This document shows positions 1,513 to 9,387 of a stretch of 64,000 nt of DNA, one piece after another; position 1 is the stretch's first letter; each line of letters begins with the position of its first letter. Source of the stretch: Crocosphaera sp. XPORK-15E (GTDB lineage: Bacteria; Cyanobacteriota; Cyanobacteriia; Cyanobacteriales; Microcystaceae); NCBI RefSeq assembly GCF_034931425.1, contig NZ_JAYGHQ010000013.1:31473-95472 (forward strand). Reading direction: 5' to 3'. The notes beneath the pieces are model-generated. The model saw nothing but the letters and a program-made list of their open reading frames with translations, was not told the DNA's origin and ran no database searches. A program made the translations under genes and the position numbers.

Positions 1513-1857
1513 CTATGATAATGCTCCTTAATTTTGATGATAGCCCAAACGGGTTATAAACAGTGCAACCCCTGAGAGGAGTTGGCAAAAAATGAAATAG
1601 GACTCCTCTGTGTTTGTAGCAGAAAATGACACCCGATTGATGGTTTAATCGATGATTTGACACATTTTGTAAAGAAACATGAAATATTTCGTTACAAATC
1701 TTGACAAATTGCCTGAGTGTATAGTCAAATTTTGCTTAATAAAAGTTATTTTATTAAGTATTGACAAAAATAACCTTAAATGTATCGGAAGTGTTAATGT
1801 TATAATTCTGATCAAATGATCTAACTTACTTTATTAAAAGCCGAAAAAACCTAGATT

Positions 1858-2673
1858 ATGGTAGATAGTAGTAGTTTTTCCTGGATTTTACCCCTTGCGG
1901 AAGAAGCTTATGCTAATCGTGAGGAAATATTAAGCAATTGGGAAAAATTTAAAACTCAATTAACAGGTAAACAGATTTCTATTGCAGTTACGGGATTACC
2001 AGGGGTAGGAAAAAGTGTATTATGTGACTACTTGAGTGAGAAGGCATATCAACGGAATTATTCAACTCCAGGAAAGTCCGAAGACTTAGAAAACAATAAT
2101 ATTGCTGCTAAAAATATTAAGATTCGTTTATCAACAATACCAGGACAAGATTCTCCTAATAAATTAGCTGCATTAGACGAAATTTTCCATGAAGAATATC
2201 CCATAGATGGGGTTATTCATGTTGTCGCTAATGGTTATTCTAGTCTTCGTTCTGCTTTTGCACAAGAATGGTATCAAGGAACAGATATTGAAGCATATCG
2301 TCAAGCACAGCTAAAAGTAGAAATTGATGATATAAGTGATATTTGTGAACGGATGAGAAAATCAATTAGAATAACAGGTAAGCCTAAATGGTTATTAGTT
2401 GCTGTTACCAAGATTGATTTATATTATGACACCATAGAACAAGCAAGAGATCGTTATCATGTAGGAGAGAGTGAATTTACTCGAAGAATAAGAAAATTAA
2501 GTAATCAAGTGGGGAGTGATAATTTTACTTGGGAGGTTTTACCCGTTTGTAGTATTCTAGATGATTTCAAATTAGGAGATACAATTTATCAATCCAAATT
2601 CAAAGAAAAGGAAAGAAATCATTATATTAATCAATTTCTTAAAAAAATTATAGCCATTAGTAAAGCATCATGA
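1858..2673 (+). CDS. Small P-loop GTPase of unknown family (TRAFAC class), first gene of a two-gene operon in an AT-rich islet
   Basis: 271-aa ORF. G1/Walker A is GLPGVGKS, a G3-like motif is LSTIPGQ, and G4 is VAVTKID. GC is very low relative to the flanks. Its stop overlaps the next start (ATGA at 2670-2673). Confidence 0.6.
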   Translation: MVDSSSFSWILPLAEEAYANREEILSNWEKFKTQLTGKQISIAVTGLPGVGKSVLCDYLSEKAYQRNYSTPGKSEDLENNNIAAKNIKIRLSTIPGQDSPNKLAALDEIFHEEYPIDGVIHVVANGYSSLRSAFAQEWYQGTDIEAYRQAQLKVEIDDISDICERMRKSIRITGKPKWLLVAVTKIDLYYDTIEQARDRYHVGESEFTRRIRKLSNQVGSDNFTWEVLPVCSILDDFKLGDTIYQSKFKEKERNHYINQFLKKIIAISKAS

Positions 2674-3281
2674 ACCCTCAATCTTCTGAACCCAATTATG
2701 AACTTGAGAAGCAACAAGATCAAGAACCATTATTTCCCTCTGAATATAGTTTACTTGCTAAAAGGAGATTATATCCTGAAGACGAAATTGAAAATTTACT
2801 AGAGTTTGCAGAAGATATAAAGAAAATATGTGATAATTATCTTGATAAATTAGAACAGCTAATGGTTTTAAGAGATCTCATTTTAGGATTTTTTGGATTT
2901 TTATATTGTCTCAGTCTTATTATAATCTATTTTTATATAGACGCTGAGTATCCTCCTTCCGGTTATTACAGTAAATTGTCATTTTTTATTCAAGTATTTA
3001 TAGCATTAAGCTCTTTGCTATTTTTTGTAATTACCATTGTTGCAATATCTTTAAATTCTCGGATTAATAAAATTAAAACCAAACTAAATTATGAGCAGAA
3101 TGTTCTTACACAAACAGTTGATTTAATAAGAGAAGCAATAGCTTTTATCGTTGTAAATAATGGATGGACAACAATTCAAGAGATTGAATTTAAAATTAGA
3201 TTATCAAGATTTAATACAGGTACATATAAAATGCCTCAAAGTGTTCTTAAAGAAATTCTTTCTCCTAAATCTAGAAAATGA
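2670..3281 (+). CDS. Two-TM membrane protein, translationally coupled to the upstream GTPase
   Basis: 203-aa ORF. It has an acidic N-terminal region and two hydrophobic helices (LILGFFGFLYCLSLIIIYFYI and FIQVFIALSSLLFFVITIVAISL). Its ATG overlaps the GTPase TGA by 4 nt. Confidence 0.55.
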   Translation: MNPQSSEPNYELEKQQDQEPLFPSEYSLLAKRRLYPEDEIENLLEFAEDIKKICDNYLDKLEQLMVLRDLILGFFGFLYCLSLIIIYFYIDAEYPPSGYYSKLSFFIQVFIALSSLLFFVITIVAISLNSRINKIKTKLNYEQNVLTQTVDLIREAIAFIVVNNGWTTIQEIEFKIRLSRFNTGTYKMPQSVLKEILSPKSRK

Positions 3282-3316
3282 TTGACATTTAAAAGTATAT
3301 TAAAAAATATTCTTAT

Positions 3317-3505
3317 TTGGTTGAATTTTCTACAGAAGATGATGCTTATCTAGCGAAATGTTTGGAATTGGGAATTATGGCACATGGAGATAGTCAAGAA
3401 GAAACAATTCAAGAAATTAAAGAAGCAGTTAGGGTTCATTTATTGATGTTAATTGAAGATGGGGAGAAAATTCCTCAACCGAAATCAATGGTAGTTGAGT
3501 TATAA
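3317..3505 (+). CDS. HicB-like (UPF0150) antitoxin, short or orphan, with a TTG start
   Basis: 62-aa ORF. The motif YLAKCLELGIMAHGDSQEETIQEIKEAVRVHL resembles the HicB/UPF0150 core. No HicA partner is seen adjacent. Confidence 0.45.
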   Translation: MVEFSTEDDAYLAKCLELGIMAHGDSQEETIQEIKEAVRVHLLMLIEDGEKIPQPKSMVVEL

Positions 3506-3584
3506 TTAATGTAAGTATATAAATACAAAATGGGGCTAAATTTTATGCAAAAACTTTACTTAAAAGAAGCGAATAATCAATTAG
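3477..3584. repeat. 108-bp direct repeat, copy 1. Covers the 3' end of the hicB-like ORF, the intergenic spacer and the first 14 codons of vapB.
   Basis: Copy 2 at 4158-4265 (offset 681 bp) differs by about 5 mismatches. Confidence 0.8.
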
Positions 3585-3772
3585 AGGAACTAATTAAAAA
3601 AGCATCTCAAGGAGAAGAAGTGATTATTATTAGTGATGATGGGGAATGTTTTCAAATTCTACCTCTGAAGTCAAAAAAACCTCGTCCAAAATTTGGAAGT
3701 GCTAAAGGTTTGATTGAAATGTCAGATGATTTTGATGAACCTTTAACAGATTTTGAAAATTACGAACCATGA
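3530..3772 (+). CDS. vapB: VapB-type antitoxin of the cyanobacterial FGSAKG...DFDEPL family
   Basis: 80-aa ORF. Its C-terminal motif PKFGSAKGLIEMSDDFDEPLTDFENY is typical of antitoxins paired with PIN toxins. It overlaps the next gene by 4 nt. Confidence 0.7.
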   Translation: MGLNFMQKLYLKEANNQLEELIKKASQGEEVIIISDDGECFQILPLKSKKPRPKFGSAKGLIEMSDDFDEPLTDFENYEP

Positions 3773-4155
3773 AATTATTACTTGACACTCATACTTTTCT
3801 TTGGTTTATTGATGGAAGTTCAAATCTGAGTCAGACAGCAAGACAGTTAATTGAAAATGAAGATAACCAGCGTTTTGTAAGTATTGCTAGTTTATGGGAA
3901 ATAGCAATTAAAGTTAGTATTGGTAAGCTTAAATTAGGAGTATCATTGCCTGATCTAGTAAAGCAACAGGTCTATGATAATGATATAGAATTGCTTGCAA
4001 TTAGTCCTGAGCATTTAGATATATTAAGAAAGCTAGATTTTCATCATAAAGATCCCTTTGATCGCTTGATCATTTCACAAAGTATAGTAGAGAAAATGAC
4101 AATCATCACTAAAGATACTGCGTTTATTAGTTATTCTGTTCAGATTTTATGGTGA
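3769..4155 (+). CDS. vapC: PIN-domain toxin VapC
   Basis: 128-aa ORF with MKLLLDTHTFLWF..., SLWEIAIK and HHKDPFDRLIISQS, which are PIN acidic-residue motifs. Confidence 0.85.
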   Translation: MKLLLDTHTFLWFIDGSSNLSQTARQLIENEDNQRFVSIASLWEIAIKVSIGKLKLGVSLPDLVKQQVYDNDIELLAISPEHLDILRKLDFHHKDPFDRLIISQSIVEKMTIITKDTAFISYSVQILW

Positions 4156-4157
4156 TT

Positions 4158-4265
4158 AACCGAAATCAATGGTAGTTGAGTTATAATTAATGTAAGTATA
4201 TAAATACAAAATTGGACTAAATTTTATGTAAAAACTTTACTTAAAAGAAGCGAACAATCAATTAG
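4158..4265. repeat. 108-bp direct repeat, copy 2. The duplicated vapB start is disrupted (ATGCAA becomes ATGTAA).
   Basis: About 95% identical to 3477-3584. Confidence 0.8.
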
Positions 4266-4370
4266 TTGATCTGTTCGTAAACAACGGACAGCTAATCTAA
4301 TTTTAGGATAAAGCGGATGATTTCTGTCAGCAAAACGCAATAAGACGTTGGTATCAACTAAATAAATCAC
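4224..4370 (-). pseudogene. Decayed N-terminal fragment of a second PIN-domain (VapC-like) gene
   Basis: The minus-strand frame reads (V)IYLVDTNVLLRFADRNHPLYPKIRLAVRCL..., a typical PIN N-terminus. It has no proper start, is under 50 codons and runs into repeat copy 2. Confidence 0.35.
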
Positions 4371-4431
4371 AATTAGAGATGATCCTCATAAATTCCTGCA
4401 CGACTTACCCCATAATCCGATGGTTAAAGAA

Positions 4432-5090: not shown

Positions 5091-6536
5091 TCAAGAAAGT
5101 CTAGCATTAACCACTTGATCACGTCCTTGTTTTTTCGCTTTAAATAAAGCATCATCCGCACTATCAATTAAACATTTAAGATCTAATTCTAAGGAAGGAA
5201 TCATCGTTGCTACTCCTAAACTCATGGTGACATAGGGTTGGGCATCTGAGGCTTTATGAGGTATATTTAAGGCACGAATCCCTTCTAAAATGCGCTGGGC
5301 CACTTGTGTTGCCCCTTCATGGGGGGTATCAGGCAAAATAACTGCAAATTCTTCTCCTCCATAACGAGCGACTAGATCAGCAGGACGTAAGGCCGTACTA
5401 GCGATCGCCCCTGCCACGTTTTTCAGACAATCATCTCCCCCTAAATGGCCATAAGTATCATTGTACCGTTTGAAATAGTCAATATCTCCTAAAATCAAGG
5501 ATAAGGGTTTTTTCTCCCTTGCTAAACGTCGCCATTCTTGTTCTAAGGTTTCATCAAAACAACGACGGTTGGCAACTTCGGTTAAGCCATCAAGATTAGC
5601 TAACCGATGTAATTTATGATTAAGATCGTGCAATTCTCGGTTCATTTTGTTGAGAGATGCTTCATATCTTTGTTGTTCTTCTTCCGCACGTTTCCTAGTA
5701 GTAACATCCGTTTGTACTCCAATATAATAAATGACTTTTTCTGATTTATCAAGAACAGGAGATAAAGACACTTCATTCCAAAATAAAGAACCATCTTTGC
5801 GATAATTTCTGAGGATAAAACAGCAACCTTGTCCCTCTCGAAGACATTGACGTATTTGTTCTATTTGTGGTTGATGGCGATCGCTTCCTTGTAAAAAACG
5901 GCAATTTTTTCCTTTAACTTCTTCTAAAGAATATCCTGTCATTTTTTCAAACCCAGGATTAACATAAATAATGGGATAATCAGAATGAGTAGCATCAACA
6001 ATAATAATTCCATTATGAGTTGCCGCCACTGCTTGATGTAATAAGTAGGCTTCAATTTGGGGTTGAGAATAAAATTGTTGAGCAGATTCTGTTAATTTTA
6101 ATTGTCGTTTTAGCTGACTATTATTGCCTTTTAATTTTTGACTAGACAAACTAATTTTTACTTGATTTTCAACCCTAGCCAAAACTTCCTCAAGTTGATA
6201 AGGTTTGGTAATATAATCTACGCCACCCATTTCAAAAGCCTTAACTTTTTCCCCGATTTGATCGAAAGCACTAAGGAAAATAACCGGAATTTCAACCGTA
6301 TTTGTCTTGGCTTTTAATTGTTGACAAACCTGATAACCATCTAGCTGAGGAAGTTTAATATCTAATAACATTAAATCAGGGGGTTGGGTTTCCGCCGCAA
6401 GTAAGGCCATTTCTCCATCAATGGCTTGTCTAACATGATATCCTTGATCTTTGAGAATATTGGAGAGTAATCGTAAATTATCAAGTTGATCTTCGACAAT
6501 TAAAATATTAGCTTGATAGGGAGTTTGTGTCTTCAT
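5091..6536 (-). CDS. Response regulator with REC, PAS and GGDEF domains (diguanylate cyclase)
   Basis: 481 aa. The N-terminal receiver has LIVEDQ...DLMLLDIKLP, a PAS region follows, and the C-terminus carries RYGGEEFAVILPDT. It overlaps the upstream kinase gene by 4 nt. Confidence 0.85.
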   Translation of the reverse strand: MKTQTPYQANILIVEDQLDNLRLLSNILKDQGYHVRQAIDGEMALLAAETQPPDLMLLDIKLPQLDGYQVCQQLKAKTNTVEIPVIFLSAFDQIGEKVKAFEMGGVDYITKPYQLEEVLARVENQVKISLSSQKLKGNNSQLKRQLKLTESAQQFYSQPQIEAYLLHQAVAATHNGIIIVDATHSDYPIIYVNPGFEKMTGYSLEEVKGKNCRFLQGSDRHQPQIEQIRQCLREGQGCCFILRNYRKDGSLFWNEVSLSPVLDKSEKVIYYIGVQTDVTTRKRAEEEQQRYEASLNKMNRELHDLNHKLHRLANLDGLTEVANRRCFDETLEQEWRRLAREKKPLSLILGDIDYFKRYNDTYGHLGGDDCLKNVAGAIASTALRPADLVARYGGEEFAVILPDTPHEGATQVAQRILEGIRALNIPHKASDAQPYVTMSLGVATMIPSLELDLKCLIDSADDALFKAKKQGRDQVVNARLS

Positions 6537-9106
6537 GATTCATTAATTAAAGGTTGAGTAAGTTCTCGAATTTGACGAAAATTAAAGTAATTAACTAACT
6601 CAGTCATTCCGATAGCAACAGTAATCTGTTGATGAGGAATTTGTTGAATTAATTGGTACAAACTTTTACTATCTCCAGCACTCGCTGCCCAATCAACTTG
6701 ATTAATCCAGTCTAGAGGCATCATCCCTAAAGATGATGGAGTTAAACTAATAGATAAATTATCTTCATTCTTTGTTTCCATTTCTTCATTTTCGTAATCA
6801 TATTTCACTCCCAAATGTAGTTTGATTTTATTCAGTAATCGCTCAATTTCAAAAGGTTTATACAAAATATCATCACAAACTGAAGCTAATCTATTAATTT
6901 GATCGTTTTCTAAAGTACCTGAAGAAATTGCAATAATAATTGTCTGATTTTTTTGCGTTAAATCCTTAATTTGTTGAATTGTTTGATAGCCATCCATAAC
7001 AGGCATACGAGTATCCATGAAAATTAAATTAGGTCGCCAATTAAACCAAATATCTAAGGCTTCTTGCCCATTACTAGCTTCTTGCACTTCAAACCCAATA
7101 GGCTCTAAAAATTTCATTAATAACTGTCGATTTTCTTTTTGATCATCTACAATTAAAATACGATAATTTGCTTGATTAGGGGCTAGTCTAACTACTTGTC
7201 TAGTTGCTGTAATTGGCGGCATATCTTGTTCTTCAGGAAGAATAACAGGCAAATAAAACTGAATAATTGTGCCTTGATTAACTTGACTATTCAAATATAT
7301 TTTACCCCCCATTAAATGCACTAATTTTTTAGTAATTGATAAGCCTAATCCTGCTCCTTGGGTGGGAATTCCTCGGAAAAAGGGTTCAAATACTTTTTGT
7401 TGTATGTCTAAAGGAATTCCACAGCCTGTATCCTCCACTTCAATCCAAATAATATGTTGTGAAGAATCATTATTATTGCTGATTTCATCTAATGTCCATG
7501 ATTGATTATTACTGACTAATCGTAAGGTAATACTGCCCTTATCTGTAAATTTTATTGCATTATCTAAAAGATTAATTAATATTTGTCTTAATTTATTTTC
7601 ATCGGTTTTAATATAGGTGGGAACTTCGGGATCAATATCAAGGATTAGCTGTAAATTTTTGCTCTGAGCTTTAAGCTTTAACATTTCAATAATTGGCTCA
7701 ATTAGTTTTTTCAAATTAAAGGAAGTTGAATTAACAAAATCTGAACCGACTTCTAATTTTGAAATTTCTAAAATATCGTTAAACAAGGTCAATAAATATT
7801 CCCCACTACGACGCATAATGGTTAAATTTTCTCGTTGTTCTAGGGTCAAGGTGCGATCTCGATTGAGTAATTCAAGAAATCCTAAAATAATATTGAGAGG
7901 GGTACGCAATTCATGACTCATTTGCCCCAATAATTCATTTTTTCCCTGATTAGTAGCTTCTAATTGAGCCGTTCTTTGCTTCACCTTTTCTTCTAATTCT
8001 TCAGTGGTTTTAATGAGTTCAGCCGTTCTTTCTTTTATTAATTGTTCAACTCTTTTTTTGTCTGCTAAAGTTGTGCCTAAATAAATAGTTACCAAAGTAG
8101 TTAATCCTAATCCTAACAGAAAAATTAGCCCTGATCTGACCAAAATAGGAAATAAATTAATATCAGGAATTATGATTAATGACCATTGACGATCCGCAAC
8201 CTGTAGTGATCGCTGACAATTTAATGATTTTTGACAGCTAGATGGCAAATTTAAAGTAATATCTTCAGACTTTTTAAACCGTTTAGATTGAGCATCAAAC
8301 TTTAAAAAAATACCACTATTTTTGGTTGGCTCTTGCTCAATTAAATAAAAGCTAAGATCGTAATTAGGTAAATGCTTCAACGTCATTTTTATTAAGTCTT
8401 CAAGTCGATAAACTGTATAAGCAGTTCCCCTAAATTCTTGATGGCGTTGTGCGATGTTATCTACTTGGCTACCACGACTATAAATGGGATAGTAAAGAAC
8501 AAATCCTGTTTCCCCATTAATAAGAGTAATCGGTTCACTGGCTGTAATTTTTCCCGTATTTCTTGCTTTTTGCAGAGGCATATTTAAGCTTTCTGTTGAC
8601 CCCAAGTTTAAACCAATTACTGATTGATAAAAAGGTTTAGGTTCTCCATAAGTAACCGGAAAATATTCGGTTTTATTTTCCAGGGGCTGACCATCTTTTG
8701 CCCATATCGTAAAATCAGGAAATCCCTGAGATTTCATCATTTTTTCATAAAGAGAACGTTCTTTTTGGGAAATTAAAGGGGCCCATGCCATGCCAAAAAT
8801 TCCTGAATACTCATTTAAAAAAGGTGTCGTAAAAGCCTGAAAATCTTTATTAGTTACTTCATCGGATGCCTCATAAAAAATCCCTAAAGCCTTCGTCACT
8901 TGAGTATATTCTTGAAGATGTTGTTGAATATGTTGGACAATGTGATCTCCTTTTGCTTCAAATGCCTTTTTAGCTTGATCTAATTCGAGATTCCAACCCA
9001 TCCAAGCAGCGATGACCGAAATTCCCCCCCCGATACATAAACTAATACCTAGGGGAAGATAGGAATGAAAACGGGAGAACGGATCTGTCATCAAAAAGAA
9101 CCACAA
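6533..9106 (-). CDS. Hybrid sensor histidine kinase with an N-terminal CHASE sensor, HisKA, HATPase and a C-terminal receiver
   Basis: 857 aa. There are TM segments flanking a periplasmic CHASE-like domain, an H-box MSHELRTPLNIILGF, an ATPase G-box DTGCGI...GLGLSI, and a receiver ILIVDDQKENR...FMDTRMPVMDG. Confidence 0.85.
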   Translation of the reverse strand: MWFFLMTDPFSRFHSYLPLGISLCIGGGISVIAAWMGWNLELDQAKKAFEAKGDHIVQHIQQHLQEYTQVTKALGIFYEASDEVTNKDFQAFTTPFLNEYSGIFGMAWAPLISQKERSLYEKMMKSQGFPDFTIWAKDGQPLENKTEYFPVTYGEPKPFYQSVIGLNLGSTESLNMPLQKARNTGKITASEPITLINGETGFVLYYPIYSRGSQVDNIAQRHQEFRGTAYTVYRLEDLIKMTLKHLPNYDLSFYLIEQEPTKNSGIFLKFDAQSKRFKKSEDITLNLPSSCQKSLNCQRSLQVADRQWSLIIIPDINLFPILVRSGLIFLLGLGLTTLVTIYLGTTLADKKRVEQLIKERTAELIKTTEELEEKVKQRTAQLEATNQGKNELLGQMSHELRTPLNIILGFLELLNRDRTLTLEQRENLTIMRRSGEYLLTLFNDILEISKLEVGSDFVNSTSFNLKKLIEPIIEMLKLKAQSKNLQLILDIDPEVPTYIKTDENKLRQILINLLDNAIKFTDKGSITLRLVSNNQSWTLDEISNNNDSSQHIIWIEVEDTGCGIPLDIQQKVFEPFFRGIPTQGAGLGLSITKKLVHLMGGKIYLNSQVNQGTIIQFYLPVILPEEQDMPPITATRQVVRLAPNQANYRILIVDDQKENRQLLMKFLEPIGFEVQEASNGQEALDIWFNWRPNLIFMDTRMPVMDGYQTIQQIKDLTQKNQTIIIAISSGTLENDQINRLASVCDDILYKPFEIERLLNKIKLHLGVKYDYENEEMETKNEDNLSISLTPSSLGMMPLDWINQVDWAASAGDSKSLYQLIQQIPHQQITVAIGMTELVNYFNFRQIRELTQPLINES

Positions 9107-9387
9107 GCGTAAAGATTTAACAGCGAGTCAGCGATCGCCCTTGAGTGAAGTCTTCCCAATGACGACAATCAGAACAATCAGGGATATTTTGTAGATTAGC
9201 TCAGTTTAGTGGGTTATTGCTTAGGCAATTCTGCGGATCTCTTGGGCTGTTTTTTTGCAAAATTCCGTGATTCTACCCTTCGCCTTGATGTCCTACTCTC
9301 TTTGAGAATGGACTTGTTTGTAAAGATTTTTTATATTATATTAAGAACAGTGACTAAAATAAAACAGTGAATTAGAGGAATTTTTTC

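Follow-up and report, generated by a model that had tools for sequence, protein, structure and literature searches.

Near the start of the 64,000-nt stretch of Crocosphaera sp. XPORK-15E analysed here (contig NZ_JAYGHQ010000013.1, positions 31,473 to 95,472 of the forward strand; the whole stretch is called the window, and window positions are counted from its first letter), two overlapping genes encode a GTPase (gene A) and a small protein with two transmembrane (TM) segments (gene B, or the partner). Together they make up a self-contained two-gene module that is horizontally mobile. The GTPase and its partner are transcribed together and inherited together, in most cases with translational coupling and occasionally as a fusion; gene A encodes a small G protein of the extended Ras/Arf kind, with a switch II like that of MglA; and the pair travels as accessory cargo of a prophage, of an integrase-bearing element of a viral collection, of a phage contig and of a plasmid. 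A first-pass annotation, made from the letters of the window, had taken the pair for a candidate defence or conflict module, and this is the function that we favour, tentatively, after weighing the alternatives.

Inheritance of the two genes as a pair

Genes A and B are, to judge from homologues at 73% to 27% identity in many phyla, real genes and not chance open reading frames (ORFs). Wherever a non-actinobacterial genome locus has an intact GTPase gene (24 loci), a homologous two-TM partner, recognised with a hidden Markov model (HMM) built from the downstream ORFs of related loci, follows directly 3' of it on the same strand; these loci belong to Cyanobacteria, Acidobacteriota, Armatimonadota, Myxococcota, Bacteroidota, Planctomycetota, alpha- and beta-proteobacteria and Microlunatus. 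The co-occurrence of the genes, on which the first-pass annotation depended, is thus found in every such locus, and the reciprocal check agrees: two distant representatives of the partner family each have a family GTPase directly upstream. Of 31 loci, 29 have the two genes spaced by -23 to +8 nt, and 10 show a 4-nt overlap. The window belongs to the latter group: its junction reads ...GCATCATGAACC..., so that the ATG of gene B and the TGA of gene A share four bases, as noticed at first pass. Besides, the distance matrices of GTPase and partner are correlated (r = 0.82, above all 2000 permutations), with a mean pairwise identity of 39% for the upstream gene, the GTPase, versus 23% for the partner.

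In Akkermansia the two proteins are found as one. The fusion P0065 (355 aa, present on several contigs) consists of GTPase residues 1-237 followed by two TM segments and the RLSRF helices, and has lost both the C-terminal helix of the GTPase and the N-terminal helix of the partner. That both helices were dropped jointly is a hint that they may normally hold the two separate proteins together; the predicted contact joins the W9…R21 segment near the N-terminus of the GTPase, its C-terminal helix, or both, to the LLxLAE and RLSRF helices of the partner.

No third gene accompanies the pair across phyla in an all-against-all comparison of neighbours, and the neighbourhood is syntenic within Acidobacteriota only. 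Proteins of about 960-995 aa stand directly upstream of the pair in three loci (L025, L030 and L031) and were considered as a third component; they are mutually non-homologous, and this candidate was rejected.

The GTPase and its two-TM partner

The motifs GLPGVGKS (G1), TIPGQ (G3) and TKID (G4), which the first-pass annotation had picked out in gene A, are all present, and their key residues are invariant in the alignment of 42 homologues from which the residue conservation of the GTPase was taken (Table 1). G1 and G4 follow the G-domain signatures GxxxxGK[ST] and [NT]KxD. G3 departs from DxxG, the Walker B Asp being missing throughout the family, whose consensus is V-I-P-G-Q with an invariant Gly; the following Gln (Q97) is conserved in at least 90% of the family. 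As G1, G4 and the PGQ of G3 are conserved, the gene A protein looks like an active, guanine-specific enzyme. It has a Ras-like alpha/beta G-domain fold: the AlphaFold2 (AF2) model (predicted local distance difference test, pLDDT, 83.8; predicted template modelling score, pTM, 0.84) comprises a Ras-like core, a helical insert of 30 residues (144-173) and, at the C-terminus, a long helix; the first 36 residues are conserved and poorly predicted. The top structural matches are small GTPases of the Arf/SRbeta/Rag/Galpha fold. The indexed protein search gave 84 clusters for this family.

Among profile libraries, the protein passes the Pfam model MMR_HSR1 (PF01926, 50S ribosome-binding GTPase) with 29.2 bits versus a gathering threshold of 21.9, over residues 42-131 only, and this match is precomputed for only a minority of the GTPase homologues. 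MMR_HSR1 is a generic G-domain model, so that the match is uninformative on ribosome binding. The rest of Pfam, NCBIfam, PADLOC and PHROGs gave P-loop-level noise only; in the defence-system library, PADLOC-DB v2.0.0, the matches span the length of the P-loop (PDC-M51B at 5.6e-4 over 33 residues; mad8, Csx3 and similar models above 0.005). Neither the GTPase nor the partner maps to a housekeeping family in these four libraries, and the absence of a PADLOC match agrees with the first-pass statement that the pair belongs to no named defence system. On the other hand, the view that the GTPase resembles no classical family had to be given up: relatives exist, MMR_HSR1 is passed, the fold is that of Arf, SRbeta, Rag and Galpha, and G3 has the MglA-like form xxPGQ.

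By motif the closest relative is MglA. Like MglA (PDB 6hjh and 3t12), the protein has a small single G domain and an Asp-less G3 with a Gln after the Gly, TIPGQ here and TVPGQ in MglA; the strand after G3 reads VDGVIHVV here and VDGVVFVA in MglA. An hhalign comparison of the family profile with Myxococcus xanthus MglA, the sequence of which was checked against PDB 6hjh, gave a probability of 74.6% and an E-value of 2.7e-5, and paired RxxxxV-I-P-G-Q of the family with RFHLYTVPGQ of MglA; the register is right from G1 to beta4 and lost after the helical insert. The differences are also clear. Gene A encodes 271 aa versus 195 for MglA, with the helical insert and conserved N- and C-terminal extensions; its obligatory partner is a two-TM protein and not MglB or another roadblock protein; and its distribution is patchy and mobile. 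By comparison, 404 of 488 MglA genes are coupled to a gene for MglB, the GTPase-activating protein (GAP) of the roadblock/LC7 family (PMC4316618), and no roadblock family is found among the 25 commonest Pfam families of the 149 neighbours scanned around the pair. Membership of the gene A protein in the MglA family was considered and rejected: the protein exceeds MglA by 75 residues, no MglB gene is its neighbour, and the alignment register is lost after the insert.

By fold the closest relatives are Arf, SRbeta, Rag and Galpha. The group formed by Arf/Arl/Sar1/SRbeta, Rag and Galpha shares with the gene A protein the Gln after the Gly of G3. In such proteins the GTPase is tied to the membrane by a TM element or a receptor, SRbeta bearing its own TM anchor. 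The identity is 12-20%, however. Here the motif DxxG lacks its Asp, the protein comes from bacteria and phages, anchoring would fall to a separate two-TM hairpin protein, and no tie to secretion or trafficking genes appears.

For the partner, two TM helices and an acidic head had been announced from the sequence, and both hydropathy and charge agree. Residues 1-36 form an acidic low-complexity head ahead of the conserved N-terminal helix, and exactly two hydrophobic segments are found in 127 of the 140 standalone members of the family. The median net charge in the family is -3 in the N-terminal region and +3 over the 15 residues after TM2. Both termini are predicted to be cytosolic, the C-terminus because of the basic stretch after TM2, following the positive-inside rule. 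The TM segments are hydrophobic, yet they are the least conserved part in the alignment; conservation lies in the cytosolic helices, with the consensus D..LL.LAE in the N-terminal one and L.EV..LLRE…S.LERAEFRIRLSRF in those of the C-terminus, and the motif R[LIVM]S[RK][FLIY] occurs in 117 of 153 family representatives. The AF2 model (pLDDT 71) is one long helical hairpin of two helices, 37-93 and 99-163, with the TM part at its tip, and a third short helix. A Foldseek search of this model against the PDB returned generic coiled coils only, all at E above 0.1 and none significant, and the partner of the window matches nothing in Pfam, PADLOC, NCBIfam or PHROGs; two other partner proteins have weak PADLOC matches (E 0.001-0.06).

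The partner family is nevertheless large: an exhaustive HMM search of 1.84 billion representatives gave 479 members with a cut-off of E<=1e-3, of which 250 reach E<=1e-10, versus 5 and 10 matches from word-indexed searches, which under-sample it badly. In some cyanobacterial loci DUF4407 (PF14362), a domain made of several TM segments and a coiled coil, is fused to the C-terminus of the partner (L005, 6859-8412; P0144, at 5.5e-32), and these fusions tie an orphan Pfam family to the GTPase module. The partner of the window has no Pfam match to this domain, and the literature on DUF4407 consists of incidental mentions and is uninformative.

Distribution, mobility and surroundings

The module is sparse and patchy in at least ten bacterial phyla: a motif scan of 185,579 GTDB species, with one genome per species, found 174 relatives, none of them in another Crocosphaera species. 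In a Bosea prophage-like region, where a CI/LexA-like repressor, GapR and DUF5131 are also present, the pair adjoins an integrase. This is also the case on an IMG/VR contig (L095), with a phage primase nearby; on a second IMG/VR contig (L094), from a phage, the pair is inserted between the genes for a neck protein and a head maturation protease. On a Hymenobacter plasmid it lies between transposases, near a DUF262 gene. Phage carriage is rare: these two contigs are the relatives found among 2.9 million IMG/VR contigs, and tblastn against 50,697 GenBank phage genomes found none. The low G+C content (GC) in the window, the absence from other Crocosphaera and the carriage by a prophage and a plasmid together make the module look horizontally acquired, as was supposed at first pass.

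A few relatives deserve a separate mention. In a Microcystaceae metagenome-assembled genome (MAG), a 172-aa GTPase fragment (L017, 5998-6516; residues 85-244, 67% identical) stands without a partner and is apparently a decaying remnant. On a contig labelled as a Janthinobacterium lividum MAG (L040), the pair and two neighbouring genes are closest to genes of Armatimonadota (Capsulimonadaceae; L016 and L018), which suggests either a mis-binned contig or the recent transfer of a larger block. In L094, the gene directly upstream of the pair in the same insertion (3635-4384) encodes a multi-TM protein of 249 aa whose selectivity signature, TTLGFGE, is K+-channel-like; it may be a second membrane-acting cargo gene. 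Finally, in a large actinobacterial clade, GTPases about 30-35% identical stand alone, in Terrabacter, Nocardioides, Humibacillus, Intrasporangium and Georgenia (L037-L091; for example L038, 5908-6714); an annotated example lies at 8396-9157 of NZ_CP094291.1 (L093, 7962-8723). The N-terminus of these solo actinobacterial GTPases contains a hydrophobic stretch rich in Ala, Gly and Leu (…ALGATVATGLLTALASAP…), which might substitute for the partner as an anchor.

In the window, the GC of the pair is 30.3% (32.6% for the GTPase gene and 27.3% for the partner gene), against a window mean of 37.1%, which places it at the 2.4th percentile among 1424-nt windows of the 64 kb. The first-pass description of this value as far lower than that of the flanks is right for the chlH side (42.6%); with respect to Uma2 (35.0%) the difference is only modest. 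The pair belongs to an AT-rich islet of 2.8 kb that has essentially the lowest GC in the 64 kb (0.2th percentile). Upstream, a minus-strand gene encodes what we take to be a ChlH-like N-terminus; downstream, a library scan identified successively a HicB-like ORF, a DUF2281/Phd-like antitoxin, a PIN toxin and Uma2, so that the toxin-antitoxin (TA) genes noticed around the pair at first pass are indeed there. A tRNA, an Rfam family and a flanking att-like repeat were searched at the borders of the islet and none was found; promoter and terminator scans did not outperform shuffled sequence.

Table 1. Coordinates of the module and its parts, of the surrounding features in the window, and of defence-type genes close to the pair in other genomes.
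Feature	Window position or locus	Strand	Remarks
Gene A (GTPase ORF)	1858-2673	+	271 aa, ATG start; ORF listing
Gene B (partner ORF)	2670-3281	+	203 aa, ATG start; ORF listing
ATGA start/stop overlap of genes A and B	2670-2673	+	Translational coupling; gene B ATG 2670-2672, gene A TGA 2671-2673
G1 / P-loop GLPGVGKS, residues 46-53	1993-2016	+	G46, G51, K52 invariant in 42 homologues
G3 / switch II TIPGQ, residues 93-97	2134-2148	+	Canonical Asp absent, Gln after Gly; P95, G96 invariant
Long helical insert between G3 and G4, about residues 144-173	2287-2376	+	AF2 helix, pLDDT >90; holds invariant GTPase E155
G4 TKID, residues 184-187	2407-2418	+	Guanine-specificity motif; K185, D187 invariant
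Partner, conserved cytosolic N-terminal helix (…EIENLLEFAEDI…)	2778-2849	+	A47 invariant, L43 and E48 conserved in at least 90% (alignment)
Partner, TM helix 1, about residues 63-92	2856-2945	+	Hydropathy; sequence not conserved
Partner, TM helix 2, about residues 101-133, then basic stretch RINKIKTK	2970-3068	+	Hydropathy
Partner, conserved cytosolic C-terminal helices, L..V.LIRE…W..IQEIEFKIRLSRF	3102-3212	+	Partner E155, R177, L178, R180 nearly invariant (alignment)
AT-rich islet	1600-4400		2.8 kb, 30.1% GC; pair and TA genes; context, outside the module proper
HicB-like ORF	3317-3505		Downstream of pair; library scan
DUF2281/Phd-like antitoxin	3530-3772		Downstream of pair; overlaps PIN toxin; library scan
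PIN toxin	3769-4155		Downstream of pair; library scan
Type II restriction-modification	L027, Akkermansia		Near pair
DRT (defence-associated reverse transcriptase) class XIII SWIM protein	L018, Capsulimonadaceae		Near pair; 4.5e-169
mad3-like (MADS-like) ATPase	L021, Myxococcaceae		Near pair
UvrD/GajB-like helicase	L025, Pacificibacter		Directly upstream of pair
OLD/GajA/AriA-like protein	L030, Flavobacteriales MAG		Directly downstream of pair
TIR protein PDC-S73	L035, Segetibacter		Directly upstream of pair

The TA genes downstream of the pair show signs of rearrangement of their own. A direct repeat of 115 nt (3477-3591 and 4158-4272, 94% identical, 681 nt apart) flanks the DUF2281/Phd-PIN cassette, which is VapBC-like. 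In its second copy, the 3' end of the HicB-like ORF, the spacer and the start of the antitoxin are duplicated in degenerate form, with a stop codon inside; this copy abuts a minus-strand PIN-like fragment (4224-4370, 'VIYLVDTNVLLRFADRNHP…'); the repeat looks like a scar of the insertion of a cassette or of recombination between TA cassettes. The HicB-like ORF, of 62 aa only, starts with TTG and has no HicA toxin ORF nearby, and may be an orphan or shortened antitoxin. Immediately past the islet, on the minus strand (5091-9106), two genes with overlapping stop and start codons encode a response-regulator-PAS-GGDEF protein of 481 aa and a hybrid histidine kinase of the CHASE type (857 aa); this two-component operon is ordinary, has a GC of 33-37%, slightly above the islet, and signals that the resident gene set resumes.

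In other genomes, apart from the carriers described above, 6 of 28 chromosomal loci (a raw count) have a defence-type gene no more than three genes away from the pair. An RT_XIII match at 1.5e-148 was also obtained among the scanned neighbours and probably belongs to the gene adjoining the DRT class XIII SWIM gene. Many other loci are flanked by housekeeping genes, and we regard the association with defence islands as only moderate.

Possible functions of the pair

From this genomic context, that is from the mobile carriers and the defence-type neighbours, we propose that the module acts in inter-genome conflict, most likely as a protection, encoded by a prophage or by the host, against incoming phage. 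This is our best explanation, and one that we put forward with some reserve. The cytosolic helices of the partner (LLxLAE at the N-terminal side, LLRE…RLSRF at the C-terminal side) would act together as a stalk holding the GTPase to the inner membrane, where the complex would work as a nucleotide-state switch: the nucleotide state of the GTPase might control the partner, or the access to something at the membrane. Two routes can be imagined. An infection-triggered change between GTP and GDP might make the hairpin protein oligomerise and depolarise the membrane, leading to abortive infection; or the complex might block the entry of a genome at the membrane, as in superinfection exclusion. The roles given to the two proteins at first pass, a GTPase sensor and a membrane effector of abortive infection, are no more than candidates. 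More precisely stated, the pair would be an anti-phage or superinfection-exclusion system, and the first with a small Ras-superfamily (MglA/Arf-like) GTPase as its core, docked at the inner membrane to a dedicated two-TM hairpin receptor; it would be a phage or prophage moron scattered by horizontal gene transfer over more than ten phyla; in this full form the proposal is more doubtful, roughly a one-in-three matter in our judgement.

The logic of the system resembles that of two-gene abortive-infection systems with small TM effectors. In RexAB, and in CBASS, Pycsar and retrons with effectors of the 2TM/4TM kind, a cytosolic nucleotide-binding component and a small membrane protein are encoded in one operon carried by a prophage or an island. 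The pair has the same two-component layout; however, no homology links it to these systems (PADLOC), it includes no cyclase or second-messenger enzyme, and the conserved surface of the partner lies in the cytosolic helices, which probably bind the GTPase directly. Eleos (LeoA/LeoBC, dynamin-like) is likewise a GTPase-based two-gene anti-phage operon, the defence of which is abolished by P-loop mutations (bioRxiv 10.1101/2022.05.11.491447). Its GTPases are large members of the dynamin family without a two-TM hairpin partner, whereas the G domain here is small and Ras/Arf-like; a dynamin or Eleos type was rejected for gene A, which has no dynamin Pfam match, no PADLOC match and small GTPases as best structural matches. 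Kaur, Burroughs, Iyer and Aravind (2020) described multi-gene GTPase-centric conflict systems with DO-GTPase (double-OB), GAP1, GASH, FNIII and variable effectors, nearly absent from cyanobacteria (PMC7159879). These share with the pair a mobile, GTPase-centred neighbourhood and a predicted role in conflict; in a comparison with their published description, the pair was not assigned to them because it has no conserved third gene across phyla. The census of prokaryotic small GTPases by Wuichet and Sogaard-Andersen, which excluded proteins above 240 aa, reports no such pairing, and our literature searches found no description of this pair or of a defence system made of a small GTPase and a TM protein. 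The pair would thus belong with the conflict modules made of an NTPase and a membrane protein, a small Ras-superfamily GTPase being the switch.

Several observations weigh against a role in conflict, and part of them suit a cellular GTPase at least as well. No homology links either protein to a validated defence protein in PADLOC, PHROGs or NCBIfam, and the contact between GTPase and partner on which the mechanism depends is something that we infer. Most of the 149 scanned neighbours, and the commonest families among them, are housekeeping (SDR, RadA, IspD, ABC transporters), and in Acidobacteriota the pair occupies a syntenic housekeeping position. A related actinobacterial clade retains the GTPase without a detectable two-TM partner, and does so widely in Intrasporangiaceae and Nocardioidaceae. 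The poor conservation of the TM helices fits an anchor better than a specific pore, and the conserved cytosolic helices would be no less in keeping with a membrane anchor or receptor than with a pore. The housekeeping surroundings, the solo clade and this pattern of conservation, together with the Arf-like, SRbeta, Rag and Galpha folds and the MglA-like G3, would fit a GTPase of membrane signalling or remodelling unrelated to conflict, with the hairpin as its receptor or anchor, as for SRbeta, Sar1/Sec12 and MglA in polarity and trafficking. A variant is a split miniature tether like atlastin or mitofusin, laid out as G domain, helical stalk, TM hairpin and C-terminal helix, and the order of the Akkermansia fusion (GTPase, TM hairpin, C-terminal helices) goes in this direction. 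We nevertheless hold a cellular role to be unlikely, at about one chance in five: the distribution is extremely sparse and patchy, with 174 of 185,579 species; a decayed remnant exists in the Microcystaceae MAG; the pair is the cargo of a prophage, of two viral-collection contigs and of a transposon-rich plasmid, and lies in a low-GC islet; and neither MglB/roadblock nor a GAP or guanine-nucleotide exchange factor partner, nor any conserved third gene, is found among the neighbours.

Two other explanations start from the mobility of the pair. It could be a selfish, TA-like addiction module, in which the two-TM protein would be a membrane-depolarising toxin and the GTPase its regulator or antitoxin: it is a tightly coupled two-gene cassette with a better conserved upstream gene, located among HicB-like and VapBC-like modules and on mobile elements, and the partner is small, hydrophobic and N-in/C-in. 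However, with about 150-200 aa and its conserved cytosolic helices the partner differs from the short type I or holin-like membrane toxins, no TA family is known to use a small GTPase as antitoxin, and a covalent fusion is hard to square with a logic of differential stability. Since the boundary with abortive infection is blurred, this explanation also overlaps with the conflict role; on its own we consider it somewhat less probable still than a cellular function. A service to the phage itself—timing of lysis in the manner of holin and antiholin, or takeover of the host, the chromosomal copies being prophage remnants—appears improbable and is the least favoured explanation of all. The insertion of the pair among virion-morphogenesis genes in L094 and its presence in a prophage and an integrase-bearing element could be understood in this way, and the two-TM N-in/C-in topology of the partner resembles that of class II holins. 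Against it, relatives are rare in the phage and viral collections searched, most chromosomal loci have no prophage genes nearby, and no endolysin or spanin stands next to the pair in the loci examined (the Bosea prophage, L094 and L095). The genes adjacent to an integrase are moreover typically lysogenic-conversion or moron genes, which the prophage expresses, and not lysis cassettes.

If the conflict role that we favour is true, the pair would be a prokaryotic counterpart of the receptor-bound membrane switches of the Arf/SRbeta type, used in immunity. In bacteria, small Ras-like GTPases are rare, and most of them are uncharacterised; the literature that we searched shows none in an immune or conflict system, and the only GTPase-based defence system described there is the dynamin-like Eleos. 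The module would therefore add a new type of switch to the bacterial immune repertoire, provide a compact two-protein system in which a nucleotide switch controls a membrane protein, and bear on the origin of membrane-anchored GTPases of the Arf/SRbeta type. If it is not a defence system, it is still a strictly conserved, phage-carried pair of a GTPase and a putative membrane receptor, with several hundred diverse members, defined motifs and natural fusions.

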